Positions 2,780 through 33,336 of a DNA stretch of 45,338 nucleotides are shown here, one piece after another (the first letter of the stretch is position 1; each line of letters opens with the position of its first letter). The notes beneath the pieces are model-generated. The model worked only from the letters and a program-made list of their open reading frames with translations. It had not been told where the DNA came from and made no database searches. The translations under genes and the position numbers were made by a program. The stretch lies in IMG/VR virus record IMGVR_UViG_3300045988_062964, positions 1-45,338 of that record. One strand, 5' to 3'. This stretch comes from a virus.

Positions 2780-3589
2780 TTAAGCCCTTACAATGTACTC
2801 ATAGTAGCGGGCCAGTTTGTCCTCCGGTGCGTCCTTGTCACAGAGGAACGATTTTGCCATGTCGGCGTAAAAATCAATCTTATCGCCGACACCGTGCTTC
2901 TTGGCTACTTTAACGTAGTCACTATAGACCATGTTGAGGGCCGCCCAGAACTGGATGGGGTCGCACTCAATCTCACGCTGGGCCATGACCTGTTTGGCCT
3001 GCTCCAGCGTCCAGTGAGCGCCACGGGTGCCATCCTCGTTGTCCATATGCTTAGACCATTCATCGGCCATCTCCTTGGTGAAAGGAATATAGCTGGAAGA
3101 TGCCCCATAACCTGTCATATGTTCTCCACCTTTTCTGTATGCCATCTCGTCCATGCGGTAGTCATGGTCAAACTCTCTCGGAGTCCTCATTTCACCTTCG
3201 CCAGAGATAGCGAATCCGATTTTGTTCATGGGACGATTCATCTCCCGTCGCTCTGTGTATGCGCTCCCATCCTCCCGATAGACCGGGGGGACGTAGGGGT
3301 AGCCGTAGTGAGACCGGGGACCGTACATCCGATCATCCCAGTATCGGCTCTCTACCCACATACCGCCATCGTTCCGTGGGGCAAAACGCCCATCAGAGTA
3401 ACGGCGATAGCCCCGATCCTCCGGCTCCATCATCTCAGAGCGCGGTGCATAACGGCCATTGTCGTAATGCTCCCGGCCACGGCGGTCACGAAACTTATCA
3501 TCGACATCGTAGTTGTCGTAGCTCCGTCCGTCGTTGTAGCGGCGATTGTTGCCACTGGACATGAGCATCATCCGAGTAGATCGTTTCAT
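2780..3589 (-). CDS. Cargo protein G: Arg/Tyr/Asp-rich low-complexity N-terminal half plus a globular C-terminal domain of unknown family
   Basis: 269 aa, SD AAGGAGGGG. Repeated GR[YF]APR[SN][ED] motifs. The C-terminal roughly 110 aa (FTKEMADEW...YYEYIVRA) look globular. Confidence 0.75.
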   Translation of the reverse strand: MKRSTRMMLMSSGNNRRYNDGRSYDNYDVDDKFRDRRGREHYDNGRYAPRSEMMEPEDRGYRRYSDGRFAPRNDGGMWVESRYWDDRMYGPRSHYGYPYVPPVYREDGSAYTERREMNRPMNKIGFAISGEGEMRTPREFDHDYRMDEMAYRKGGEHMTGYGASSSYIPFTKEMADEWSKHMDNEDGTRGAHWTLEQAKQVMAQREIECDPIQFWAALNMVYSDYVKVAKKHGVGDKIDFYADMAKSFLCDKDAPEDKLARYYEYIVRA

Positions 3590-4035: not shown

Positions 4036-4097
4036 CCGCCGCCCCGAAATAGTCACGGCAAAGCCGGAAGACCAACTTACGAGGATTCCTCGTAAGT

Positions 4098-4859
4098 TTA
4101 GCAGCCACAACCGCAGCCGTTGTTGTAGGTCCCGCAATAGGGATAGGGGGCGGGCACCTGGTAAGCGGGCACGGGCATGGGATTGATGCGCCGAATCAGT
4201 TCAGAGGTCTGAGCGTCCAGAGTGGCGGTCAGATAGCTGTTCTGGTTGGCCTGAGAGGCAGCCAGCTTCAGGGACTGGTTTTCCGCCTGAAGGGAATCAA
4301 TCTTGCTCTGAGTCAGGAAATCCAGAATGGCGCGGGTGTTGGAATTGTTGTTCTCCAGAATATCGCGGGTGCTGCCCTGGATGGTATTCTGGATGGCGCA
4401 GGTGTTGGTAGCCATGTTGTAATTCACGCCGTCGATGGCGCGCTGGGTCTGGCAGCAGCAGTCCTGTGCCTGAGCGGCCATGTTGCACATCTGAGACTGG
4501 ACACCGTTGAAGCCCTGAAGCAGCGCCACATTGGTGTTGTTGAAGCCGCTGGTGATGCTGTTGTTCAGGGCATAGGTGCTGTCACAGATGCCCTGCTGGA
4601 TAGCAGAGATGCCGCGCTCCACACCATTGAAGGCAATGGCCTCATTGACATCGGCACGGGTAGCTAGGCCCTGGAGGCCGGGATCGGTGCTGGCACCGCC
4701 ACCGCCGAAACCACCGAAGCCGCCGCGGCCCCAGCCAAAAATCATGGCGAAGATGATGATAGCCCACCAGCCATCGCCACCCCAAAAGCCGCCATTGTTA
4801 CAGTTGCCGCCGTTGGAGTCGGATCCAAGAGCATAGCCAGTCGCAAAATCGTTATCCAT
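4098..4859 (-). CDS. Cargo protein E: Gly/Trp-rich single-pass membrane protein with an Asn/Gln-rich body and a C-terminal CGCGC tail
   Basis: 253 aa, SD AAAGGAG. The N-terminus is GGFWGGDGWWAIIIFAMIFGWGRGGFGGFGGGG. There is a CCC cluster mid-protein, and the protein ends YCGTYNNGCGCGC. Confidence 0.8.
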   Translation of the reverse strand: MDNDFATGYALGSDSNGGNCNNGGFWGGDGWWAIIIFAMIFGWGRGGFGGFGGGGASTDPGLQGLATRADVNEAIAFNGVERGISAIQQGICDSTYALNNSITSGFNNTNVALLQGFNGVQSQMCNMAAQAQDCCCQTQRAIDGVNYNMATNTCAIQNTIQGSTRDILENNNSNTRAILDFLTQSKIDSLQAENQSLKLAASQANQNSYLTATLDAQTSELIRRINPMPVPAYQVPAPYPYCGTYNNGCGCGC

Positions 4860-4968
4860 TGTATATACTCCTTTGTCAGTTATTACATCGGGGCCGTACG
4901 CTCCCCGGATGTTTCCAAAGAGCGGTTTTTTGTCAAGACACCGAAAAACTGAAAAGAAGTGCTCTATT

Positions 4969-5226
4969 TTATTTCATGGGTATACCTAGTTGTCGTGCAA
5001 TTTCCTCAACGGAGGTTCCCCTCTGTTTTGCCATGTTTTCCGCAGTCTGGCGAAGCTGCTGCGGGTTTTTCCCTTGAATGAGCCGCATAGCTTGAGCTGC
5101 CTGCGGATTCTGTCCAGCCATCTGCTGGAGCATTTGCATGGGATTCCCGCCGTTCCGCGCCATCTGGAGCATGGCCGTCATGGGATTATTCATCGGAGGC
5201 ATCATTCTTTTTCCCTGCCTTTCCAC
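4969..5226 (-). CDS. Cargo protein D: Met/Gln/Pro/Asn-rich small protein (start uncertain, 5226 or about 5205)
   Basis: Contains repeated NP(M/Q)Q motifs in the 85-aa ORF. The C-terminus is GTSVEEIARQLGIPMK. It overlaps the end of protein C. Confidence 0.6.
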   Translation of the reverse strand: MERQGKRMMPPMNNPMTAMLQMARNGGNPMQMLQQMAGQNPQAAQAMRLIQGKNPQQLRQTAENMAKQRGTSVEEIARQLGIPMK

Positions 5227-5671
5227 CAGAAGCGGGCTTTTTCAGCCGTTCTATCTCGTCCTTCAAATTGTTGATGGTGTCCTTCATGTCCATAAATTCA
5301 TCCAGCGGTGCGAAAGCAGGGGCCGGATTCTCCGTCTGTTGTTCTTTTGCCTGCTGTTGACCATGGAATTCAAACACATCAGCAGCTCCGGTATTGGTAT
5401 TGAAGCGTTTCATATAGACCACATTATGAGCGAGGTCGGGGAAAAACATGGGAGCACCCATGAAGTCAACCGGGACCCCCAGCGCTTCTTCTCTAGAGGC
5501 CACAGGACGGCAGAAAAAGGCAGGCTGCGTGTTTACATTCCCCTGTGGCTGAATGGTCTGCGAGGGCTGCTGAGCAGGCTGCTGGGGCTGATATACTTGT
5601 GGAGCCGGAGCAAACGGGGTAACAGGATTGTAGGCCCCATAAGCCGGGTATGTGTAATTAGGAAACGCCAT
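5186..5671 (-). CDS. Cargo protein C: Pro/Gln-rich N-terminus, conserved-looking core, C-terminal coiled coil
   Basis: 161 aa, SD GGGGAGGGAGG. The core is RPVASREEALGVPVDFMGAPMFFPDL, and the tail is DTINNLKDEIERLKK. Confidence 0.75.
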   Translation of the reverse strand: MAFPNYTYPAYGAYNPVTPFAPAPQVYQPQQPAQQPSQTIQPQGNVNTQPAFFCRPVASREEALGVPVDFMGAPMFFPDLAHNVVYMKRFNTNTGAADVFEFHGQQQAKEQQTENPAPAFAPLDEFMDMKDTINNLKDEIERLKKPASGGKAGKKNDASDE

Positions 5672-5891
5672 ACTGACGCGCCTCCCTCCCCGCCTCCAAT
5701 GCGGTTACGTAATCCTCTAGGCCCTCGTCATCTCCCTGTGCCATGTACCACATCGCTGTTTCGGCGGCACAATCGCGGGACATGCCAGCGGCTACCATCC
5801 TCTCGATTAGAGTCATATCCAACACGTCCTTGTCCATAAAATAAGGAGTCCGTGAGGAGGGCGGCGACGTGTACCAACCCTGTATCCTCAC
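5658..5891 (-). CDS. Cargo protein B: small acidic hypothetical protein (start uncertain)
   Basis: The 77-aa ORF has a GTG at 5891 only 1-2 nt after AGGAGG, which is too close for a normal SD spacing. The internal ATG (MDKDVLD) has no clear SD. Confidence 0.45.
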   Translation of the reverse strand: MRIQGWYTSPPSSRTPYFMDKDVLDMTLIERMVAAGMSRDCAAETAMWYMAQGDDEGLEDYVTALEAGREARQYGVS

Positions 5892-5914
5892 GTCCTCCTA
5901 TTGATATTGTCGCA

Positions 5915-5951
5915 TAAAAAAACTTCCGCCGGGGGACATTCCAGCGGAAGT
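5915..5951 (-). terminator. Strong intrinsic terminator separating the late/lysis operon from cargo genes B-G
   Basis: On the minus strand, ACTTCCGC-14 nt-GCGGAAGT followed by TTTTTTT. Confidence 0.8.
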
Positions 5952-5960
5952 TTGGGGGCG

Positions 5961-6230
5961 TTATGTACCTTTTTGGAGGAATCCCAGCTTGTTTGCCGTG
6001 AACTCCACCTTTTCAAAGATGAAGGGCAGGTGCCGGTGGAGCGTTTTCCGGTCTATCCCGCAGCAATCGGCCGTGTCAACCTGCGCTTTCCGTTCCAGCA
6101 GATAGAGCTCCGCAATCTGCGTGTCGTCTCTCCCCAGATTGGCCTCGTGGATGGAGCGCTTCATTTCTGAGGTAGTCAACTCCTCTAATCTTCCAGGAAA
6201 TCGAATCAGCGCTTTTGACACGTCCTGCAC
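5961..6230 (-). CDS. Small HTH protein resembling sigma-70 region 4 (putative transcription regulator)
   Basis: 89 aa with a GTG start coupled to the upstream stop. DDTQIAELYLLERKAQVDTADCCGIDRKTLHRHL resembles a region-4 HTH. Confidence 0.45.
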   Translation of the reverse strand: MQDVSKALIRFPGRLEELTTSEMKRSIHEANLGRDDTQIAELYLLERKAQVDTADCCGIDRKTLHRHLPFIFEKVEFTANKLGFLQKGT

Positions 6231-6231
6231 C

Positions 6232-6558
6232 TCATTCTTCCGGCGGCTCTGTGGGCAGTTGTTTCAGGGCCTCCGCCAATTTTGTGACGGTTCCATTGCC
6301 TCCCAGCGCCTTGTATGCGTGATACATCGCCAACACATTTTCCATCCCATAAATCGGGATGTACTCAAGCTCCATGTAGTGGTTGTACTCGGCAATGATT
6401 TCGCGTCTTAGCAGAGCCTGTACCCCATTCATAAGGGCATCGCTCTTCTGATTGTCCGCTTTGATGCGTTTCCGCTCCCGCGCGGCGACCGCCTCGATAA
6501 TCGCCACCAAGACCACAGCCGCGCCGGAAATCAGTGGGCCTACCCACTCCATGGGCAT
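6232..6558 (-). CDS. N-terminally membrane-anchored lysis-cassette protein (possible second holin or holin partner)
   Basis: 108 aa with one N-terminal TM segment, GPLISGAAVVLVAIIEAV. The SD AAGGAGG overlaps the holin stop. It lies directly downstream of the holin. Confidence 0.5.
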   Translation of the reverse strand: MPMEWVGPLISGAAVVLVAIIEAVAARERKRIKADNQKSDALMNGVQALLRREIIAEYNHYMELEYIPIYGMENVLAMYHAYKALGGNGTVTKLAEALKQLPTEPPEE

Positions 6559-6830
6559 CAGCCCTCCTTAGTCAACTGCTTATAGACCTGATTGATACCA
6601 GTGGCCGCAAGGCCGGAGACGATGCCAACGGCGGCGGCGGTCAAATAGTCCGAGGCTGGAAACTCTGGCATGATAAACATGCCGAGGATGCCCAGCGCCG
6701 CGCCAAACGCACCGCAGATAATGGGAATCCACTTGTTGTCCAGGCCGGTGGCCTTGACCAACTGCCCGACGAGGAAGCAGATCACAGTGATAACCGCTAC
6801 TCCCGTGATACCCAAAGAAGAAATGTCCAT
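6558..6830 (-). CDS. Holin (phi LC3 / Holin_4_1-like)
   Basis: The ATG at 6830 follows the SD GGAGGT. Three hydrophobic segments. Motif DNKWIPIICGAFGAALGILG. It lies between the endolysin and the membrane protein. Confidence 0.8.
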   Translation of the reverse strand: MDISSLGITGVAVITVICFLVGQLVKATGLDNKWIPIICGAFGAALGILGMFIMPEFPASDYLTAAAVGIVSGLAATGINQVYKQLTKEG

Positions 6831-6844
6831 GATATGTACCTCCA

Positions 6845-8200
6845 TCAAATCAGATTCAGCCGATCCAGCACGACAGCCAGCTCCTGCCGGGTCATATTAT
6901 CGCGGGGCCGGGTGCCGTCCAGCACGCCCTTGTCCTTGGCCTTCTGCCACGCATCAGCGGCCCAAACGTCCGGGGTGTCCTCCGCGTTGTCCTCTCCCGG
7001 TTCGGCTTGCCACGCCACGCCCAGGAACTCACAGATGCCCTTTGCGGTGGCCTCGGCCAGTTTGTCTCGATACTTGGTGTCCTTAAGGTACTCCACGTCG
7101 GCCTTGTTGGTGTGGAAACCGTACTCAATCAGGCAGGCGGGAGCGTCCGTCTTGGCGAGCACGGTATACATCTCATGCTTGATAGGTTCACTTCTCATGG
7201 AAACACCGGCGGCGTGGAAGACGTTGACCAGGTCAGAAGCCAGCACATTGCGCTTCGCCGTCATGGGCCCGGCGCTGGTGTAGATCTCCAGCCCGGACGC
7301 GCTTGACCAGCCTCCCTCCCCGGCCGCGTTGGTGTGGATGCTCACAAAGCAATCCGGCTGCGCCTTATTGCTGATGTTGGCCCGCTCCGTGAGGCCGGGG
7401 TAGTTGTCCGCCGTCTTGGTGAGCACCACGCCCACCCCTTGGGCCTCCAGAAGCGGTTTGATACGCTGGGCCATGTCCCAGGTAAACTCCCACTCTTTGT
7501 AGGTGCCGTCCGGGGAACCGTTGACGTTGCCCGGCCCGTGTCCGGGGTCGAGGCATACAGTGTGCTTGCTCATAGGCTTGTCCTCCTGTTCCGGCGGCTT
7601 CTGGCCGCCCTGTTTGAGCCAGACGCAAATCCAGTTGTGCACCTTGCGGCTGGCGGTGATGCGCTCTCCGCCAAAGTCGCACTGGCTGGAGCCGCCCCCA
7701 TCCAGCATAACGGCGGAGGACCAGCCCAGCCCGGCCAGCTCGTCCCGCAGAGTTTCCGGCGTGGCTGCGTCTCCGGTCCCATCGCCAGAGCAGTAGAGGG
7801 CCAGACTTCCACCCCGCAGGCCAATGGCGCTGCGCCCCCTCTTGCCTCCCTGGGCTGATCCGTAGGAGGGCTTATCCACCGGCTTACCGGAGGTAACGAG
7901 GGCGGTCACAGCGATAAAGTTGGCCGCTCCCCCGTACTCGGAGGTCATGTGGATGTCGGGGCCCTTATCCCAGGCGTAGCCCATCGCTCTCCAGGGCGTG
8001 CCGGAGCGCATTACCCCGCCCACCTTAAGCAGCGGGCAGGGGGTGCCGTCTGGGTTCCACATGCCGCCATTGAGCACGTAATGAGCCTTTGTTTCAGCCT
8101 TGACCTGAGAGAGCGTCTTGCGGCAGTTGGTGACTCTCAGCTCAATCCGCTCCACGGACGAGAGCGGGATGTATGTAATGAGCTTACTCATTTGATTCAC
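6845..8200 (-). CDS. Multidomain endolysin: phosphodiester-glycosidase-like N-domain, Amidase_3 (N-acetylmuramoyl-L-alanine amidase) and a short C-terminal SLH-like segment
   Basis: N-domain: LNGGMW...RSAIGLRGG...VMLDGGGSS. Amidase: VCLDPGHG...FVSIHTNAAG...LIEYGFHTN. Tail: WQKAKDKGVLDGTRPRDNMTRQELAVVLDRL. Confidence 0.85.
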   Translation of the reverse strand: MNQMSKLITYIPLSSVERIELRVTNCRKTLSQVKAETKAHYVLNGGMWNPDGTPCPLLKVGGVMRSGTPWRAMGYAWDKGPDIHMTSEYGGAANFIAVTALVTSGKPVDKPSYGSAQGGKRGRSAIGLRGGSLALYCSGDGTGDAATPETLRDELAGLGWSSAVMLDGGGSSQCDFGGERITASRKVHNWICVWLKQGGQKPPEQEDKPMSKHTVCLDPGHGPGNVNGSPDGTYKEWEFTWDMAQRIKPLLEAQGVGVVLTKTADNYPGLTERANISNKAQPDCFVSIHTNAAGEGGWSSASGLEIYTSAGPMTAKRNVLASDLVNVFHAAGVSMRSEPIKHEMYTVLAKTDAPACLIEYGFHTNKADVEYLKDTKYRDKLAEATAKGICEFLGVAWQAEPGEDNAEDTPDVWAADAWQKAKDKGVLDGTRPRDNMTRQELAVVLDRLNLI

Positions 8201-25589: not shown

Positions 25590-26090
25590 TCATTTCAGTG
25601 CGCCCCGGATCAGGGCGTTCATTACATCGTTTTCTCCTGTTTTTTGCTTCCCTCCGCCCACTGGAGCAGTCCAGTCAAAGGAAGTCTTCTTGCGGTCGGC
25701 GGTGAGCGCGTCCACGGCCTGCTCAAAGGTGGTCTTGTCGTCCACCATCTTCCCTGCCTTGAAGGCGATGAACTCCGCCTCCTCGCCGGTCAAGCCCTTT
25801 TTCAGGACATACAACTCACGCTTCAACTGGTCTCTCTCCGCTTCTGCGGTTGTCAGCTTTCCGGAGAGAGTATCCCTCTCGCCAGTCAGCTTGTCCCAGC
25901 GTTCTTTCTCTCCGGCCTGCCCGTCCTTCCAGGTGCGGTAGGCGGTCAGCTCTTCTTCGCTGGGCATTCCCTTCATGGCTTTTGCAAGCCGCTTGCCAAT
26001 CATGGAATCCACTTCCGCCTGAGTGAAGGTTTTCTCAGGAGCGGGCTCCGGCGCAGGGGCCGGGGTAGGGTTATTGATAGGTTCGCTCAT
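25590..26090 (-). CDS. Capsid scaffolding protein (DUF4355-like)
   Basis: 166 aa. Has the FTQAEVDSMIGKRLAK motif and a coiled coil. It lies directly upstream of the capsid gene. Confidence 0.7.
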   Translation of the reverse strand: MSEPINNPTPAPAPEPAPEKTFTQAEVDSMIGKRLAKAMKGMPSEEELTAYRTWKDGQAGEKERWDKLTGERDTLSGKLTTAEAERDQLKRELYVLKKGLTGEEAEFIAFKAGKMVDDKTTFEQAVDALTADRKKTSFDWTAPVGGGKQKTGENDVMNALIRGALK

Positions 26091-26143
26091 AAATACCTCC
26101 GTTTATTGTCAGGGCCGTCGCCCTGCGGTTTTACGCCTCTCGG

Positions 26144-26197
26144 CAAAATAGAAAGAGCCATCAAACCGTTACAGTTCGTAACCGGTTCAATGGCTCT
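26144..26197 (-). terminator. Long hairpin / intrinsic terminator
   Basis: On the minus strand, AGAGCCAT..AACCGGTTAC-gaact-GTAACGGTT..ATGGCTCT followed by TTCTATTTT. Confidence 0.6.
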
Positions 26198-26217
26198 TGG
26201 CTCACAGGCTCTTGGCT

Positions 26218-26364
26218 CTATGCGATATTTACTTCCATGTCGTGCTTACATGCCTTGCATCGAAACGGCATGTGCTCTACTTTGGTATCCGGTCGAACCG
26301 GGAAAAGAGCTTTCCCGCAGTACGGGCAGCAATACCATGTTTTCCCGTTAATTTCTTTTATCAC
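26218..26364 (-). CDS. Cysteine-rich KTR-like zinc-ribbon protein (48 aa)
   Basis: Not on the ORF track. The GTG start overlaps the upstream TGA and follows the SD GGAGGA. Translation is VIKEINGKTWYCCPYCGKALFPVRPDTKVEHMPFRCKACKHDMEVNIA. Confidence 0.55.
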   Translation of the reverse strand: MIKEINGKTWYCCPYCGKALFPVRPDTKVEHMPFRCKACKHDMEVNIA

Positions 26365-26567
26365 GCGCTGTCCTCCATAACATACCACTTGCACTTCTCG
26401 CAGACTTCATTTGCTTTATCTACGTCAAACGGCTCTATTGCAAGCTCCATGTCCATCTCGTCCTCCCGAACTTCTTGGACCTCATAGCACTCTCCATATA
26501 GGATTTCTCGCCCAAAAAGAGGGCAAACGCATTTATCATTGTGATTTTTCGCCATATCATTTCCCAT
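26361..26567 (-). CDS. Small acidic Cys-rich protein (68 aa)
   Basis: Has C-x-C ... C ... C-x2-C spacing and overlaps the end of the MuF-like gene. Confidence 0.6.
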   Translation of the reverse strand: MGNDMAKNHNDKCVCPLFGREILYGECYEVQEVREDEMDMELAIEPFDVDKANEVCEKCKWYVMEDSA

Positions 26568-28083
26568 CCAAATAGTCCCGATACTTCTTTCTCAGCTTTT
26601 CCGGGACCGCTGTTACAATCTTCCCGTCAACGCTTAAAACTACATAACCGCTATCTGCCAAGAATTTCAATGTATTCCGGTCAGTCTGATACAAAACTAA
26701 CCTGCTGTTATTTATGATACTCTGCGACGCTTCAATCGTCAATGCAGATCTATCCGGTTTCATCGTAAGGTTATTTGCAAAGTGGTCTGTCACGCCGCTA
26801 ATCTGCGGCGGGTCAAGCTGCACCTGATATTGTCTGGAAGAGAATTTACCGACAATTTTTATGTTCCCTTGATATGATTCCAGCCCGGAAAATTGTTTTA
26901 TGCTGGTTAGCCCTTCCGGATATTGAACCTGCATTCTTTCTCTTTGTAACGGTAGCCCCGCCGCCTCGCTGAACGCCTTGTATTCCTGATTCAGTCTCCG
27001 GATACGGGTAGTCACCGCCTGGTAGTTCTCCGTCAGTCCTGCGGCCTTGTATGCGGTCTGTTCTCGCTTCAGCTTGCGGATAGTTCGCTCGACCTGCCGC
27101 TGTTTCTGTGTGGCCTCATAAGCTGTGTAGTGCTTTCCCTCAAAATCCACGTCGTGCCCATCGTCTATGTGAGCAAGTTCTTCGTCGGTATATGTTCGCT
27201 CCATCACACCATCCACAAAGGCAGTCCTGATATGTCGGCAGTTTGCACCCTCCAAGCCGTCCACATAGCCAAGCCCGCACACCTCATAAATGCTCGGATA
27301 CTTGTCTCCGGTCCTTACGGAGTACACCCGGCCCTGCCATGCCTTGTGGTTTTGCCAGCCGACACCCTTATCTCGTGCCCCGATGTGGGCGGACACTTCA
27401 AAATAAGGAGTTTCCAAATACTCTGCACTCTGCTCCGTGTACTTGGCACAAAGCTGAGACACCCCCGTCATCACCGCCCGGCGGGCTGCCACGTCGATAT
27501 GGTCACGGTGGCCGCTCTCATAATCCACAACCTTGATACCGCTGTCCGCAAGCTGTTTGACGGCGCTTTTGATGGCCTGATTGTAAGAGATGGCCCCGCT
27601 CGTGATCTGCATTTCAGCGTTATCCAGCGCCCATTGATAGGCCCTGGCCGTGGGAAGCATCGTCCGCCCGTTGTCCACCAGAAAGCCCATAGAGCCGGTC
27701 ATGTTATGGAATGTCTGTTTGGTCTGCTCGTAGATAGCCCATGTGTCCTCGATGCTAACCAGTGTTTCCGGTGCAGTTACACCCGCAATGTCCATAACCT
27801 CCTGGTAGTACCGCTGGTTCCGCTCCGCCACGTCGTCCAAGAGCTTTTGCAAGTCCCGCTGGCTGATGTTTGCGGTGCTCTGGATGGCCTTTTCTATGTC
27901 CTTTAGGTCAATGCCATGGGAGCGGAGTGCCCGTATATCCTGCACCGTGACCTCGTTCAGCTCGCCGGATAATTTCAGGCGAGAACATATTTCCTCCAGG
28001 AGCGTCGCTTCCAGACTGCGGTATAGCTCGGCCAATTCTTCTGGAAGAGAGTCCAGAACTTCGGGAGAGAATGGGTATTTCAT
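26557..28083 (-). CDS. Minor capsid / head morphogenesis protein (SPP1 gp7 / MuF family) with an extra C-terminal domain of about 115 aa
   Basis: Core is YFEVSAHIGARDKGVGWQNHKAWQGRVYS...GANCRHI, followed by the coiled coil YEATQKQRQVERTIRKLKRE. An AT-richer tail of unknown family occupies 26557 to about 26913. Confidence 0.8.
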   Translation of the reverse strand: MKYPFSPEVLDSLPEELAELYRSLEATLLEEICSRLKLSGELNEVTVQDIRALRSHGIDLKDIEKAIQSTANISQRDLQKLLDDVAERNQRYYQEVMDIAGVTAPETLVSIEDTWAIYEQTKQTFHNMTGSMGFLVDNGRTMLPTARAYQWALDNAEMQITSGAISYNQAIKSAVKQLADSGIKVVDYESGHRDHIDVAARRAVMTGVSQLCAKYTEQSAEYLETPYFEVSAHIGARDKGVGWQNHKAWQGRVYSVRTGDKYPSIYEVCGLGYVDGLEGANCRHIRTAFVDGVMERTYTDEELAHIDDGHDVDFEGKHYTAYEATQKQRQVERTIRKLKREQTAYKAAGLTENYQAVTTRIRRLNQEYKAFSEAAGLPLQRERMQVQYPEGLTSIKQFSGLESYQGNIKIVGKFSSRQYQVQLDPPQISGVTDHFANNLTMKPDRSALTIEASQSIINNSRLVLYQTDRNTLKFLADSGYVVLSVDGKIVTAVPEKLRKKYRDYLDGK

Positions 28084-29498
28084 TCAATCTCGTTCTCCCC
28101 TTCCGTTGTCATGTCCTCCATCTTTGGCAGCATTTTCTTAGCCGTAGCCTCGTCCTCGTTGTACCACTTCATGCGGTACTCCCACGGGTTCATAATGCCC
28201 GCCGCAAGGTCCTGACGGTCATTATTCCGCTCGGTGGTCTTGTCCTCGATGATAGAGTCATCAAAGTCAATGGTAACTTTAGCATCTTCATTCAGCCCGG
28301 CGCCCATGGCTGCATTCCCAAGCCGAAGAATAATATGGCACAACTCTGTAATGGCCTGTTCCAAAATGATTTCATGCTTTTTGATGGTCCTAAACATGGT
28401 GGAGTTTTCGCTGATGACCTGGGTGGCTGTGGTAATGCTCCCCTGGTCGAAGCGGTAATGGTTTTCTCCAAAGCCACACTTGCTGGACAGTAGATTCAGT
28501 TGGTCTTGGATACCCGTGTTGTGCTCCTGGGTACGTAGTGTCATGTCGATGGGCGTGATGACCGCACCGTCACTTACATCCTCCGGGAGTACATAGTAAG
28601 CCAAGTCGTCCGGGTCAAAAAATGGCTCTCCGTCGAGGTCTTTGGTTGCAGACGGCTTGACCATGATGCGCTTTTTTCCAAGGACGAATTCATTGACGTA
28701 GCTATCATAGGCCACATCTACGCCTTTGAGAACATCGATGGCGTTTGCATAGACAGAAACCCCCAGCGGAGAATCGTCAAAATTGTTGGCAATATTAGGC
28801 CTGTCAATAACAAACTGCCTCTGATCTGATCCGGTATGTACCACAGGAGGGACTGCCTCAAACCCTGGAATGTCGGCCAAAGACAGTTCTGCATCCACAT
28901 TGTTATTGCGGTAATGATAGATGCGATTCTCGATGTCGTATAAGCCGTCTACCTTGTGATGAATCTGGAGATAACAATAATCCTCACCGTTGACGGTCAC
29001 GATGCTATCAAATGCGCAATCGGTAATAATACCGTTCTGCCATGCCAGCGGCCAGATATGCTCCACGGTCACATAATCCATTACAATGCCGCTTGCGCTT
29101 CCAGGAATGGGACCAAACTCCGTCGCTTCCATGCCTACTACTCGCGGTATAAAGGCCACTGTCCCGAGTGCAAACGCTTTTTCCTGCATCTCATTTACCT
29201 GGACCAGAAAGTTGTTTTCGGCGAACACGCGGTCAATAAATTCCTGCTCCCGCTGCCCCTCCAGAGTGATTTCCACCTTTTCATTCATCAGGAGGTTTGC
29301 CCAATCCTCTGGGATCTTCTTGCCCATGTTGAGAGTATACCGCTTGCATCGAACCATGCTCGTTCCGTTTCGAACCTTGTACCGATGGAAGCCCTTCACA
29401 TCTCCAATATACCAGCTTTTCCATTCCTGCACTTTTCGGTAAAAGTATTCGCTGATGGTGGCAAAGCCCAGCTCTTTCAGCTTATCATTTATGTTCAA
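28080..29498 (-). CDS. Portal protein (SPP1 gp6-like)
   Basis: 472 aa, lying between TerL and MuF. The N-terminal pattern is EYFYRKVQEWKSWYIGDVKGFHRY. Confidence 0.85.
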   Translation of the reverse strand: MNINDKLKELGFATISEYFYRKVQEWKSWYIGDVKGFHRYKVRNGTSMVRCKRYTLNMGKKIPEDWANLLMNEKVEITLEGQREQEFIDRVFAENNFLVQVNEMQEKAFALGTVAFIPRVVGMEATEFGPIPGSASGIVMDYVTVEHIWPLAWQNGIITDCAFDSIVTVNGEDYCYLQIHHKVDGLYDIENRIYHYRNNNVDAELSLADIPGFEAVPPVVHTGSDQRQFVIDRPNIANNFDDSPLGVSVYANAIDVLKGVDVAYDSYVNEFVLGKKRIMVKPSATKDLDGEPFFDPDDLAYYVLPEDVSDGAVITPIDMTLRTQEHNTGIQDQLNLLSSKCGFGENHYRFDQGSITTATQVISENSTMFRTIKKHEIILEQAITELCHIILRLGNAAMGAGLNEDAKVTIDFDDSIIEDKTTERNNDRQDLAAGIMNPWEYRMKWYNEDEATAKKMLPKMEDMTTEGENEIE

Positions 29499-30733
29499 GC
29501 AGTTACCCCCATTCTTCTGAATACACGCTCAAGTGCATACCTTGTAGCGTCAATAAGGTGGTTATTCTCGTCAGGATACCCGCTGATGATCTCCCCATCC
29601 TTATTTCGCTCATACTCATAATTCACAAACTCGCTATAAGCGTTTGGAGTCCTTCTGCGGTCAATGACAATCTTCCGCTTCTGGAGCCACTTCATACCAT
29701 ACTCCACGCTTCCAGGCCCCTTAATTGCCTCTTTGGCCGGAAGGCCCATCGCCCGATAGTCTGCTGATGATTTAGGCTCTGCGCTGTCACAGGTAATGTA
29801 AGCATCCTTGTATCCTTTGGAAAGAATCAACTTTGCGCTCGCCTCGTTGGTCAGCTTATTTTGGTATATCTCGTCCATTAGGTATATTGTCTCCCTGGCT
29901 CGGTCATAGTGGAGGCGGATAAAGGCAAATGGATCAGGGAACCAGCCCCAGTCCACACCTTGATAGATACGGTCAAAGGAAGCGAACTCTTCGTCCGTGA
30001 TTCCCCTCAACTCCAGATTCTCAAATACGTTGCCGCCGGTGCCGACCGCTTCGCCCAAGTATTCATGGCGGTATGCCCGCTCATCCGTGGATTTCAGATG
30101 TTCGGCCTCTGCCAGAAACTGCGCCCCAAGCCATTCAGGCGGGGCCTCCAAGTATGTGCTCTTATGGCACAGCCTGTCCGCTCTTTCTTCCAAGCTGTCT
30201 TTGTTGGCCCAGTTGTCCCGGCTGATGGGTGGATTGTAGCTCTCAAAGTTCCAGAACTTCGACCCGCCGCGCATGGTAGATTGTAAAATGGTTCTAATCT
30301 CCGCCCGACCGGAAAACTGATCTTTTTCTTCAAAGTGTGTTACAGCGATATATCCGAACGGAACCTTAATGGACTTTATTTTCATGGGGTCATCAGCGCC
30401 CCGGAACATGATTTTCTGCCCAGTCGGCTTATAAATCAGCTCCATAGGTTGAACCTTAGCGTCCCAGTACGCCGCCATACCCAATTCTCCGATTGCCCAT
30501 AGATATTGTGCATACACGCTGTCCCGGATAGTGTTCGCCACTTTGCGAAGTACCAAGGCGTGGGTGTTTGAATTGGTCAGCAGGATAAGCGGCACCAGCA
30601 GGGAGACGCAGGAAGATTTAAGCGAGCCTCGGCCACCAGACAAATCATAGTGTGTGTGTCCGTGTTGGAATACGTCACGAGCCAGTAGGTGGAATGCAGG
30701 TCCAAGGACGGACGATAAACGAATCTCAGACAT
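29495..30733 (-). CDS. terL: Terminase large subunit (PBSX / Terminase_3 type)
   Basis: 412 aa. Walker A-like LSGGRGSLKSS. It overlaps terS upstream and the portal gene downstream. Confidence 0.9.
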   Translation of the reverse strand: MSEIRLSSVLGPAFHLLARDVFQHGHTHYDLSGGRGSLKSSCVSLLVPLILLTNSNTHALVLRKVANTIRDSVYAQYLWAIGELGMAAYWDAKVQPMELIYKPTGQKIMFRGADDPMKIKSIKVPFGYIAVTHFEEKDQFSGRAEIRTILQSTMRGGSKFWNFESYNPPISRDNWANKDSLEERADRLCHKSTYLEAPPEWLGAQFLAEAEHLKSTDERAYRHEYLGEAVGTGGNVFENLELRGITDEEFASFDRIYQGVDWGWFPDPFAFIRLHYDRARETIYLMDEIYQNKLTNEASAKLILSKGYKDAYITCDSAEPKSSADYRAMGLPAKEAIKGPGSVEYGMKWLQKRKIVIDRRRTPNAYSEFVNYEYERNKDGEIISGYPDENNHLIDATRYALERVFRRMGVTA

Positions 30734-31106
30734 CTATGACCACCTTGACCTCCGTATCTCCATCGCCGTTCGCCTTTCCATCAAACGCTCCCACATGCTT
30801 TCCCAGCAATTCAAGCGCTTTTATCTTGCTGGAATACTTCAGGTCGCTGTCGTTCGCATCCGAGGCCGGTTTATCTGTGATTTCCTTCAGCTTGGCAAGC
30901 ACATAGTCCTGTGTAATCTCTGTCCGTTCACTTCTGGCTCTCTTTGCTTCCTGAATTGCGGAAGAAACGTTATTTTTCGTAATTAGCTGCCGCCCAATTT
31001 CAGGGTTTTTATACCCTGCCCGAAGAGCAGCCTGTGCGGCATTCAAATCCACAAGGTACTCCTGCACAAATCTTTCTTGCTTTGGCGTTAATGCCACACT
31101 CACCAC
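30726..31106 (-). CDS. terS: Terminase small subunit (Terminase_2 type)
   Basis: Motif LTPKQERFVQEYLVDLNAAQAALRAGY. Confidence 0.9.
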   Translation of the reverse strand: MVSVALTPKQERFVQEYLVDLNAAQAALRAGYKNPEIGRQLITKNNVSSAIQEAKRARSERTEITQDYVLAKLKEITDKPASDANDSDLKYSSKIKALELLGKHVGAFDGKANGDGDTEVKVVIDV

Positions 31107-31617: not shown

Positions 31618-32325
31618 TTAACCTAGAAACATGTTGATAAAAAACTGCTGTCCTTTCCCCGTCACCTTCGGAGTCTTGTTTACTGTAACGTGCCCATCTG
31701 CATGTGTAATGCTGGTTTCCTTGATTTCAAACAGGCCCAATTCCATCGAGCGCTGTGTGGGCATGTTGTAATCCGTGCCCTCTCTGCGGATCAGATATCC
31801 GTTATTCCGCATCCAGTCAAAGAGGCGGTTCTGCCCAGTGTCCACCCCATTCTGCTTGAGGAGCTTTGCCAGCTCTCCAACCAGTATGGATGTATTGGAG
31901 GCAGCCACGGAGTCCGCAAATAGCACCTTCGGCCGGTTGGTCTCCTTCTCCGCCTCCAGCATCTTAATCTTTCGATCTGCTATCTGGAGCGCACGGGCCA
32001 TTACCTTTTCCGGGCTATTCCAATCCTTTTCCAATTGGAGGAAATACTTCCGGGCAATCTTCCCCTTCTCGTTCCGCTGTAGCATGCAGATCTCCTTGGC
32101 CATATCGATAGAGACGGCGGCATCTTTCATGCTCTGAGGGCCGCCAGCGGGGTTATGGACAAAAATGTCCGTGACTGCGTAATCCTCATTTTCAGCGAAT
32201 CCATATTCGCACATACGGGGAAACCACTTGTGGTACGGTGTTTCTACCTCTAGAAACTCGTGGAGTTCCCGCGCTGATACTGCTGGCTTTTCGCCGCTAA
32301 AGTCAACTTTGATTAGTTCGTTCAT
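31618..32325 (-). CDS. Phage antirepressor (AntA N-domain plus KilAC/ANT C-domain)
   Basis: The start at MNELIKV follows the SD AAAGGGTGG. N-domain: ARELHEFLEVETPYHKWFPRMCEYGF. C-domain: PKVLFADSVAASNTSILVGELAKLLKQNG...LFDWMRNNGYL. Confidence 0.85.
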   Translation of the reverse strand: MNELIKVDFSGEKPAVSARELHEFLEVETPYHKWFPRMCEYGFAENEDYAVTDIFVHNPAGGPQSMKDAAVSIDMAKEICMLQRNEKGKIARKYFLQLEKDWNSPEKVMARALQIADRKIKMLEAEKETNRPKVLFADSVAASNTSILVGELAKLLKQNGVDTGQNRLFDWMRNNGYLIRREGTDYNMPTQRSMELGLFEIKETSITHADGHVTVNKTPKVTGKGQQFFINMFLG

Positions 32326-32374
32326 GTAGATACCACCCTTTCTGTTTTGCTTCCCACCTTTATGTTGACTCAGG

Positions 32375-33100
32375 GCAGGGGAGTAAGGTGGCACCTCCCT
32401 TTTCGGCCCGTCGGCCTAGCCCTGATCTTTTGTTTGAGAGGCGGCGGTGGAATATCCCGCCATGCGTTTCCTCTCATTGGTGCCACCGCCCGCCTCATGC
32501 GGCGAGGAGCGGCATATGGCGGACAGTAGGTTGTCCAGCCGCCCATTGGCATTTAATTTAATCGCGCAGTGCCTCTTTTGCTTTCCATCTGCGTTTGGAG
32601 CCGAGAGGCGGCATTGAGCCGCCACACGTCCACGGCGTTGTCCATGGCCGCCGCTTCCGCTTCTGCTCAAGCACTCGGCATATGTGGCGGATTCCGTCTC
32701 TACACGCTCCGCCGGGCGCAGCCGCTTTCTATGTGTCGGCACACCGGGGCAGGTCATAGCTGCCACCGCTTTTTTAGCTCCGCCCCCATGACAGGCGGCT
32801 CGCGTCTTACTCTTCCCAGCGCCTAGACGCTCCGGCAATCTGGTGTAGTGTCTTTCCACCGTCATTCGCCGCCAGAGGGGTGCGACCCCTCATGCCCCGA
32901 ATAGTGGGGTGGTGTTCGACCGGCGGCATATTGCACACAGAGGGGGTGGCGGCAGATACACCGACGCCACCCACTCTACGTGAAGGAGGAAAAGGGGATG
33001 GAAAGAGAATGGGAGCGCAGGGGCACACGCTCCCACACTCCCATTTTCGCATATACCATGCTCTCCGATTCCCTCACGAGGGAATCACAGCAACTTTTTC
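32375..33100. ncRNA. Candidate large structured non-coding RNA (class and strand undetermined)
   Basis: No credible ORF. Perfect GC hairpins at 32521-36, 32607-23, 32748-64, 32802-30, 32877-89, 32895-909, 32944-72, 33011-34 and 33067-86. A 9-bp long-range complement joins 32387-95 to 32479-87. Confidence 0.4.
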
Positions 33101-33117
33101 TGTGAAATAATGAAAAG

Positions 33118-33336
33118 TTACATTGCTTTTGGATCGTCTGTTCTTCCTAGCAAGTAATCCACAGATACATTGAAATGGTCTGCTATTTTTACAACAGATA
33201 CTATTTCAGGAATCACTCCATCCCGCTCATATCTCAAAATTGAGTTCTTGCTGATGCCACATAACTCCGCCAGAACACAGGGCTGTGTCCCTTCCTTCTC
33301 CCTCAACTTCTTCAATCTCTCCCGGAACTCGTTCAA
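33118..33336 (-). CDS. XRE-family HTH protein (72 aa)
   Basis: Motif LREKEGTQPCVLAELCGISKNSILRYERDG..P. Confidence 0.8.
   Translation of the reverse strand: MNEFRERLKKLREKEGTQPCVLAELCGISKNSILRYERDGVIPEIVSVVKIADHFNVSVDYLLGRTDDPKAM

Follow-up and report, generated by a model that had tools for sequence, protein, structure and literature searches.

The DNA considered here is the 45,338-nucleotide (nt) IMG/VR record IMGVR_UViG_3300045988_062964, called the window (the whole stretch), and within it a block at 32326-33117. The block is a gene-free gap of 792 nt between the stop of a gene for a 72-amino-acid (aa) HTH_3 (XRE) protein (33118) and the ATG of an AntA/KilAC antirepressor gene (32325-32323, minus strand), in a window in which the minus strand carries nearly all genes. 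A first-pass annotation had remarked on some 790 nt without a credible gene, GC-rich and dense in hairpins, and had proposed a large structured RNA, possibly of the ROOL or GOLLD class. The gap is confirmed here, as are its GC content (0.61-0.63 at 32400-33000 vs about 0.50 in both flanks) and every stem-loop listed at that time, each of which maps to one module of the block. The block is a real conserved non-coding region, a variant transfer RNA (tRNA) cluster that retains just tRNA mimics and other structured RNAs. It holds no true tRNA, and consists of three tRNA mimics (alpha, beta and gamma), a motif called zeta and an int-alpA leader motif, with the spacers and 5' elements given below from the upstream gene to the downstream one.

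33118..33336, minus strand: gene for a 72-aa Cro/C1-type helix-turn-helix (HTH; XRE) protein, the last before the block (Pfam HTH_3, 40.1 bits)
33067..33086, strand not applicable: H1, perfect 9+9 inverted repeat GATTCCCTC/GAGGGAATC (inverted-repeat search)
33043..33051, minus strand: candidate extended -10 element TGCGAAAAT, at which conservation among relatives starts
33009..33036, minus strand: H2, 11-bp GC-rich hairpin with pyrimidine tract UCUCUUUCC (terminator-like call)
32934..32982, minus strand: H3, long hairpin directly upstream of the first AUAU (inverted repeat)
32864..32931, minus strand: alpha unit (RNAfold; model R1, 86.3 bits)
32744..32865, minus strand: zeta motif, about 120 nt (model R2, 62.7 bits for 32865-32774)
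32684..32743, minus strand: spacer D (RNAfold; 40 loci, almost invariant)
32596..32683, minus strand: beta unit (RNAfold, cloverleaf-like fold)
32518..32595, minus strand: spacer F (52 loci, 6 near-identical variants)
32478..32517, minus strand: gamma unit (RNAfold, ((((((.((((((......)))))).))))))....)
32427..32477, minus strand: spacer H (RNAfold; 25 loci, 5 variants)
32357..32426, minus strand: int-alpA RNA motif (RF02996; cmscan 51.8 bits vs gathering threshold 35.8, E = 5.6e-08)
31618..32342, minus strand: AntA/KilAC antirepressor gene (ant) with its Shine-Dalgarno sequence (Pfam AntA 82.1 bits, ANT 127.7 bits)

Protein coding was rejected for the block. Its largest open reading frames (ORFs; 149, 85, 81 and 76 aa) overlap one another on both strands, as had been described, and a Pfam search of these four gave no match; homologues have 1-nt and 8-nt indels inside the internal ORFs. 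Folding of the region is stronger than that of its dinucleotide shuffles on either strand (z = -4.98 for minus and -5.14 for plus), and 0/20 shuffles equal it.

The 4227 families of Rfam 15 were searched against the whole window at the gathering threshold and against 32200-33300, both strands, at E<=10, with an additional 101-nt scan of beta. The whole-window scan gave two matches, RAGATH-31 and int-alpA, and the permissive scan of 32200-33300 gave just noise beyond int-alpA, with no ROOL, GOLLD, tRNA, transfer-messenger RNA (tmRNA) or ribozyme family. ROOL (RF03087; gathering threshold 99.1 bits) had no match in the window at threshold, nor on 32200-33300 at E<=10, and the positive control at 4773-5438 of L022 scored 338.4 bits with the same tool; GOLLD (RF01998) had no match at E<=10 either, the control covering ROOL and not GOLLD. 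The membership in ROOL or GOLLD proposed earlier thus fails, and the block is neither. ARAGORN found 0 tRNA or tmRNA genes in the window, leading us to reject true genes of either kind there; the tRNA clan (RF00005) had no match at E<=10 in the 1.1-kb search or the 101-nt beta search, and tmRNA (ARAGORN, RF00023) had none in the window. In L022 the Rfam tool reports, as controls, the ROOL, one tmRNA and 17 tRNAs. L022 (IMGVR_UViG_3300006217_000061) is an unrelated 53.7-kb viral contig, and carries at 4773-8141 the ROOL, two tRNAs, the tmRNA and 15 more tRNAs.

The RNA is made from the minus (gene) strand, because the int-alpA motif lies on minus, the tRNAs in zeta-bearing loci share the strand of zeta in 138/138 cases, and the tested helices contain 68 G.U cells vs 14 A.C cells when read from this strand. 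A plus-strand terminator, suggested before for the hairpin at 32748-64 and the T-run after it, did not hold up: the T-run is present in the window but missing in many relatives, and the hairpin is the P5 hairpin of zeta in reverse.

Homologues were collected by three pattern scans of IMG/VR, which yielded about 180 loci (given here with L numbers), and the block was compared with them by BLAST. In the phage collection, matches were found only in two Flavonifractor plautii phages, Chenonceau (L001, ON453904.1) and Castelnaud (L002), where they occupy the same slot, between a gene annotated as 'transcriptional regulator', at the position of the XRE gene, and antirepressor or HNH-terS genes, each phage sharing a different portion of the block. 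BLAST revealed a mosaic in which segments q73-201, q195-382, q443-648 and q609-806 occur in varying combinations across loci, with inserts of 195-219 nt or of 0.8-1.4 kb between them; parts of the block are reordered, deleted, duplicated, or separated by tRNA genes, extra modules or gene cassettes. Similarity between phages stops exactly before ATAT and exactly after CCA. In six loci (L064, L074, L066, L070, L083 and L014) the modules are the sole DNA in common with the window, at up to 97-98% identity. Among 185,579 representative genomes the 3' end of beta was found in 4 loci, in Oscillospiraceae, Muriventricola aceti and one probably viral contig in another bin. All four are Oscillospiraceae-type prophage or viral contigs, therefore the modules are phage elements, and a REP-like repeat of the host was rejected. 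The large structured RNA of the first-pass annotation survives in part: the block is structured, conserved and non-coding, as compensatory changes in homologues bear out, but its parts combine independently, and a single RNA is probably not what it encodes.

The array occupies the slot that in related gut phages of Oscillospiraceae holds tRNA genes, between the early/regulatory and the packaging genes. The alpha covariance model R1 weakly matched an 84-nt sequence in many relatives that is a canonical tRNA-Thr(UGU) with an ATAT leader and an encoded UCCA, and in many relatives ARAGORN called tRNA-Thr(UGU), tRNA-Ile(GAU), Met, Gln, Pro and Thr(CGU) interleaved with the modules of the window. 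One non-coding array of about 1.5 kb (L008) reads, in order, near-consensus promoter, H3, tRNA-Ile, zeta, D, delta/epsilon, tRNA-Thr, beta, F, gamma, about 0.4 kb of non-coding DNA, and tRNA-Met. The tRNA-Ile(GAU) replaces alpha in L003, L008 and others, in the identical context TGTGTGCAATAT/ (here and below the stroke marks the junction). A tRNA lies within 1.5 kb in 49 of the 102 loci found via the zeta hairpin, always on the same strand. The genuine tRNAs share the punctuation of the units in the window: among the 39 distinct ones in the first 86 fetched loci (L001-L086), an exact ATAT leader precedes 17 and an encoded CCA ends 33. The grammar ATAT + 6-bp stem + NCCA gave 146 units in the fetched DNA vs 11 in shuffled DNA, recovering real tRNAs, many beta variants, an alpha variant ending in ACCA and a minihelix in L120. 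This minihelix (4078-4112; 35 nt, unrelated in sequence, ending in ACCA after ATAT) lies between tRNA-Ser and tRNA-Tyr in a different array on a 114-kb viral contig, thus minihelix-CCA units are not confined to the lineage of the window. At 3360-3409 of Chenonceau, on the minus strand of its locus, a tRNA-Thr(UGU) has been reduced to 50 nt: it lacks the anticodon arm and the D stem's 3' half but keeps the ATAT leader, a canonical T arm and UCCA; the Chenonceau record annotates small hypothetical proteins over the non-coding stretch.

The 8-mer ATATGCCG occurs three times on the minus strand of the window, at 32931, 32683 and 32517, all three units beginning ATAT/GCCG, and 2-6 times in relatives, always at the start of a module. 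Alpha has its ATAT leader at 32931-32928 and a 60-nt tRNA-like body at 32927-32868, in which an acceptor-like stem of 6-7 bp is joined by a short arm, whose loop has 7-8 nt, and by a T-like stem of 5 bp that closes the 7-nt loop GUCGCAC; the body has no D arm, and the copy in the window has no CCA. Two hairpins listed earlier, 32877-89 and 32895-909, are its T arm and anticodon-like arm. In the alignment of alpha 99.5% of cells are paired and 3 pairs show compensatory (double) changes, and the variant in L137 ends in ACCA. Beta has its leader at 32683-32680 and an 84-nt tRNA-shaped body at 32679-32596 ending in U-CCA. Its acceptor stem comprises 6 bp, after which position seven is a U.U mismatch; a long arm of two helices carries a loop of 8-11 nt; and the T stem, of 5 bp, closes the 7-nt loop CUCAAUG and is the listed hairpin 32607-23. 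In the alignment of beta 98% of cells are paired, with 3 compensatory pairs and many GU/GC switches. Among beta variants found later, that of L137 has a T stem changed in a compensated way to GGAGG/CCTCC, and that of L098 is just 58 nt long, a short hairpin standing in for the long arm; part of the D region is deleted in L034. Gamma, present in 67 loci, has its leader at 32517-32514 and a 36-nt minihelix at 32513-32478, a 12-bp bulged hairpin ending in A-CCA, and divergence sets in right after CACCA. The compensatory changes in alpha and beta, together with those in the helices and kissing loops of zeta (see below), represent covariation among homologous regions, a test for which the first-pass annotation had suggested.

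According to RNAfold, each unit would present an 11-12 bp acceptor/T stack or a 12-bp minihelix with a 4-nt 3' tail (acceptor plus T stem: 6 bp, with the U.U, plus 5-6 in beta, 6 + 5-7 in alpha, 6 + 6 in gamma). The putative cleavage sites have AUAU/G in all three units, and at the other end there is ACCA in gamma, UCCA (pyrimidine discriminator) in beta and no CCA in the window copy of alpha. None of the units has the 7-nt anticodon loop and D arm of a tRNA, the loop of beta having 8-11 nt and gamma being a bare minihelix. Of the spacers, D has the hairpins UGUG-CCGA-CACA and GGCGGA...UCCGCC and ends 2 nt before the next AUAU; spacer F is a conserved 78 nt with the hairpin GGACA-ACCUAC-UGUCC (listed before at 32521-36) and a possible small pseudoknot; spacer H has the hairpin GAGAGG...CCUCUC, then an A-rich linker.

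Arrays of relatives hold further parts. In L006 an antisense two-gene cassette at 6228-7050, encoding a 161-aa HTH-containing and a 61-aa protein and having its own bidirectional terminator, is inserted exactly after the ACCA of gamma, and after it comes another minihelix-CCA unit, gamma'; its hairpin differs from that of gamma but is built alike, and it replaces or duplicates gamma in L006 and Chenonceau. Extra modules absent from the window were seen in L006 (5826-6021), Castelnaud (about 3100-3235) and L008 (1640-1830). One of them, delta, begins ATATGCAGG; another, epsilon, has a closing helix GCUAUCCCGCU/AGCGGGAUAGC, the conserved strands CUGAAAAC and GUGACAAUCUAAG, and variable inner helices. 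Both look like additional structured RNAs of these arrays.

Zeta is a well-supported structured RNA motif without an Rfam family (Rfam 15 at the gathering threshold, and at E<=10 on 32200-33300). It begins with a 5' hairpin GUG-GAAAGA-CAC (32859-32848), followed by helix X (32843-32840 and 32836-32834 with 32823-32821 and 32819-32816) and helix P3 (32830-32825 with 32807-32802, the listed hairpin 32802-30), which cross each other. It ends with the hairpins P4 (32798-32780, loop UGUCAUGGG) and P5 (32764-32748, loop CUAUGAC), the loops of which are complementary. Its invariant core GUGGARAGACACUAYACC retrieved 59 + 108 viral loci with 68 unique variants, and 64 sequences, 62 of them distinct, were aligned to a model built from the nested helices, helix X being left out. 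Pairing holds in 93% of cells vs 84.6% in shuffles and <=50% with partners slid, and compensatory changes occur in 15 of the 21 pairs, including all five pairs of P3 and all five of P4. Helix X, though outside the model, is 88% paired with A-U/G-C exchanges; since it crosses P3, pairs and covaries, zeta includes a pseudoknot of the H type. Complementarity between the P4 and P5 loops recurs in at least 10 sequence versions (for example GUCAUGG/CUAUGAC, UUGCUAG/CUAGCAA, UUGCAGU/GCUGCAA, UGCUGG/CCAGCA and AUCGCAC/GUGCGAU), which makes them a covarying kissing-loop pair, and matched loops average 6.5 bp vs 3.7-3.9 bp when cross-paired. The MAFFT alignment of zeta misplaced P3, and the automatic parsing of loops was noisy.

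Three other structures were rejected for zeta. A larger hairpin GGUG/CACC around GAAAGACACUA gave way to GUG/CAC and helix X, since the latter covaries and needs the same CC; pairing of the 5' UGAC with the P4 loop is not kept in variants with an altered P4 loop; and an HDV-like or theta fold disagrees with the order of helices (hairpin, X5', P3-5', X3', P3-3', P4, P5), with no HDV-type match in Rfam. Zeta starts 1-2 nt past the discriminator of CCA-less alpha or of a CCA-less tRNA-Arg, and it directly follows the ARAGORN-called end of a CCA-less tRNA-Arg(CCG). A weak zeta-like copy (25.7 bits) lies at 6558-6648 of L022, between tRNA-Met and tRNA-Gly in the ROOL-headed tRNA array.

At the downstream end, the int-alpA match is full length (model 1-71 of 71), a three-stem junction ending 31 nt before the ant start codon. 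The motif is also present in Chenonceau, L006 and L057; here it precedes an AntA/KilAC gene, and the family name implies an integrase or alpA-type gene. The 3' strand of gamma plus ACC (GGUGGCACC, 32487-32479) is perfectly complementary to the loop of int-alpA hairpin 2 (GGUGCCACC, 32395-32387). This is the 9-nt long-range complement (32387-95/32479-87) pointed out earlier, and the pairing is real, but by our estimate 0.8 kb would hold about 1 pair of this kind by chance; in gamma' versions 6 nt of the complementarity remain, the copies being nearly invariant.

At the upstream end, the place of H1 is taken in relatives by other inverted repeats, one per phage lineage (AATTCCTCC..GGAGGAAT, TTGCCAATTGGCAA, TCTCCCAC..GTGGGAGG, GCGCCTCC..GGAGGCG), and H1 is possibly an operator or the end of the XRE transcript. 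At the candidate -10 element, relatives have TGCGA(A/C)AAT, or without TG TAAAAT/TAGAAT, immediately before GGGAG, the sequence upstream of it diverges, and a promoter of 10/12, TG included, occupies the corresponding position in the L008-type array, suggesting a putative promoter. H2 (listed before at 33011-34) is one of 2 terminator-like sites in the region, where 1.9 are expected from shuffles; its tail is the pyrimidine tract, and it is kept with different sequence in Castelnaud and with U-richer tails in L067. It would be the terminator of the early operon, an attenuator or a 5' hairpin. H3 (listed at 32944-72) is rebuilt with different sequence in the Chenonceau/L003-type and L025 variants.

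We lean towards reading the block as a tRNA-punctuated array of phage RNA genes plus a late-operon leader, encoded on the minus strand and cut by RNase P and RNase Z, an interpretation that we rate slightly on the probable side. Transcription of the array would run in the direction of the genes and into ant-terS-terL, either starting at a promoter immediately past the XRE gene or arriving by read-through. The determinants of RNase P are known to be the acceptor and T stems, the T loop, a 3' RCCA and U(-1)/G(+1), and the enzyme also cuts non-tRNA phage RNAs (PMC10731613). Because such features are present, in whole or in part, in alpha, beta and gamma, and because their leader and tail are common to the real tRNAs of sister arrays, we read the three units as punctuation. 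Host RNase P would cut at each AUAU/G, guided by the acceptor/T-stem stack and the encoded NCCA, and RNase Z or another activity would cut after CCA-less alpha; zeta and the other structured pieces would thereby be freed as discrete small RNAs, and the late mRNA would receive a 5' end that begins with the gamma hairpin and the int-alpA leader. A bolder version of this proposal, which we offer as tentative and somewhat doubtful, is a 'tRNA-punctuated ncRNA operon' (ncRNA, non-coding RNA) in gut Oscillospiraceae phages, in which mimics (AUAU/G...NCCA minihelices and anticodon-less cloverleaves) serve as RNase P/RNase Z signals that release zeta, the latter representing a new compact double-pseudoknotted class that might act as a self-processing ribozyme for the 3' trailer of CCA-less tRNA or tRNA-like units, or as a trans-acting effector of late development.

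Several points weigh against the punctuated array. Its cleavage is something we infer wholly from sequence, and the tRNA likeness of alpha, beta and gamma is our own structural reading, the units being unrecognised by ARAGORN and by the Rfam tRNA and tmRNA models (beta also in the 101-nt search). Beta has U, not a purine, before CCA, and its T loop begins with C, not U; the GCCG after ATAT is conserved beyond the needs of RNase P. Although real, the covariation behind alpha and beta derives from few lineages: for alpha the compensatory changes represent essentially two, and for beta they came at first from one sequence (L086). The loci were gathered with zeta and beta patterns, and figures of co-occurrence therefore carry an ascertainment bias. 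A consensus promoter scan of the window did not call the TGCGAAAAT site, and H2 could be a simple terminator of early transcription.

An alternative function for the mimics, compatible with processing by RNase P, is that of decoys: alpha, beta and gamma, made in abundance, would titrate host factors whose targets are the acceptor ends or the bodies of tRNAs, for instance defence nucleases and nucleotidyltransferase or acetyltransferase toxins, and so shield real tRNAs. That phages encode tRNAs to counter tRNA-targeting defence is a theme already established. In the units the acceptor stem, T arm and CCA are retained and the anticodon is lost, they are 93-100% identical in phages with no other DNA common to the window, and, since they persist in phages that also carry real tRNAs, they are not simply tRNA replacements. 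However, no defence or toxin partner was identified, units without an anticodon arm would be unable to decoy anticodon nucleases, gamma is just a 12-bp minihelix, and sequence does not separate decoys from punctuation; we regard the decoy function as unlikely, though the foremost of the alternatives. Slightly less likely still is a decayed tRNA cluster, whose functionless pseudo-tRNAs would be kept by recent common descent. There is no intact tRNA in the window, the tRNA-Thr copy of Chenonceau has its anticodon arm deleted, and most beta, gamma and spacer copies are nearly identical, which makes purifying selection hard to tell from recency. On the other hand, divergent copies preserve helices by compensatory and GU/GC changes, the modules are the sole conserved DNA between otherwise unrelated phages and have sharp edges at ATAT and CCA, and arrays with intact tRNAs also contain beta and gamma.

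Lower again we place one large ornate RNA of the ROOL/GOLLD kind, in which the whole block of about 0.7 kb would act as a single, possibly multimeric RNA. High GC content and strong predicted folding agree with it, as do the pseudoknot and kissing loops of zeta, which are ornate-RNA features, and the ROOL at the head of the tRNA array that holds a zeta-like element (L022); the genomic setting, in prophages next to tRNAs, is the same as that of ROOL and GOLLD (PMC5737381). Yet neither family matched at E<=10 while the control ROOL reached 338 bits, modules are shuffled, deleted, duplicated or set apart, what lies between them being tRNAs, 195-219-nt inserts or a 0.8-kb antisense gene cassette, and no covarying long-range helix was found between modules. 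The least probable explanation, to which we give very little credence, is a DNA-level element, with hairpins and ATATGCCG words forming a packaging (cos/pac) site or hot spots of recombination or integration like the att sites in tRNA genes. The block does lie just upstream of the packaging genes, terS included, ATATGCCG recurs (3 times in the window, 2-6 in relatives), and mosaic junctions fall at unit ends, gamma-type units flanking the cassette inserted in L006. But G.U is tolerated and A.C is rare, and on one strand only (68 vs 14), which is the signature of RNA and not of a DNA cruciform or protein site; stems covary and loops stay fixed, and the same units are found within ordinary tRNA arrays far from terminase genes (L022, L120).

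The tRNA region of phage T4 carries extra stable small RNAs, species 1 and 2. The punctuated array that we favour resembles phage tRNA clusters in slot and strand logic, close packing, short AU-rich leaders and encoded CCA, with tRNAs interleaved in relatives, but the copy in the window differs in having no functional-looking tRNA, just mimics and non-tRNA structured modules. In the MALAT1-mascRNA arrangement, RNase P and RNase Z generate RNA ends at a tRNA-like structure. The t-elements of plant mitochondria are likewise tRNA-like structures used in RNA-end formation (PMC1920247). Like both, the units of the window are acceptor/T-arm mimics that would lie inside longer transcripts, at the borders of other RNAs; unlike these eukaryotic or organellar cases, they carry an encoded CCA and are arrayed in a phage, and their cleavage is putative. 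ROOL and GOLLD, of unknown function, are found in phages and prophages near tRNAs (PMC5737381). The block shares with them its phage location next to tRNAs, GC richness and pseudoknotting, and ROOL co-occurs with a zeta-like element in L022; it is modular, whereas they have a fixed architecture of 580-800 nt, and its largest coherent fold is zeta, of about 120 nt.

In gut phages, CCA-less tRNAs have their 3' trailers processed by adjoining theta (minimal HDV-like) ribozymes (PMC10879173). Similarly, zeta is found in gut phages within 1-2 nt of the discriminator of a CCA-less tRNA or tRNA-like unit, but it consists of a hairpin, a simple H-type pseudoknot and two kissing hairpins, unlike the nested P1/P2/P3/P1.1/P4 double pseudoknot, which has a catalytic C in J4/2; t-elements and theta ribozymes are functional parallels, and we claim membership in neither for the units of the block. 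The segment 32426-32357 is a full-length member of the int-alpA family, in a phage and just upstream of a regulatory gene; that gene encodes an antirepressor, not an integrase or AlpA, the segment follows a CCA-ending minihelix, and it covers 70/792 nt of the block. C4 of P1/P7 and CI of P4 are small phage RNAs cut by RNase P from a longer transcript, and C4 of P1 lies upstream of an antirepressor gene and controls it. The block also lies upstream of an antirepressor gene, and RNase P processing is proposed for it; it differs in that no sequence or model match to them was found (C4 is in Rfam, and the Rfam scans gave no hit to it) and no antisense target for the units was identified here.

The usual reading of phage tRNA clusters is as cargo for codon usage or against defence; here the slot is filled wholly by mimics and structured RNAs, the elements of which are conserved in >150 gut viral contigs, often without other shared DNA. 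The locus offers three putative RNase P sites with a simple grammar, a covariation-supported zeta, and a defined setting for the orphan int-alpA motif. If true, the processing model would be a bacterial-virus counterpart of organellar tRNA punctuation, and would open a route to the roles of the tRNA-associated phage RNAs ROOL and GOLLD.

Beyond the block, the Shine-Dalgarno sequence of ant, AAAGGGUGGU, lies at about 32342-32330. The ant gene is the first of the packaging/late block, and is followed by a weak VRR-NUC match, terS and terL, Terminase_2 (Pfam) being assigned to 30729-31106. The packaging/head region at 26000-30940 has 93% identity to 'Bacteriophage sp.' MT835625.1, an unannotated sequence from human faeces, which places the window among human-gut phages. 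At 5845-5898 on the minus strand lies a full-length RAGATH-31 RNA (RF03101; 81.6 bits vs gathering threshold 71.8), the second catalogued structured RNA in this phage.

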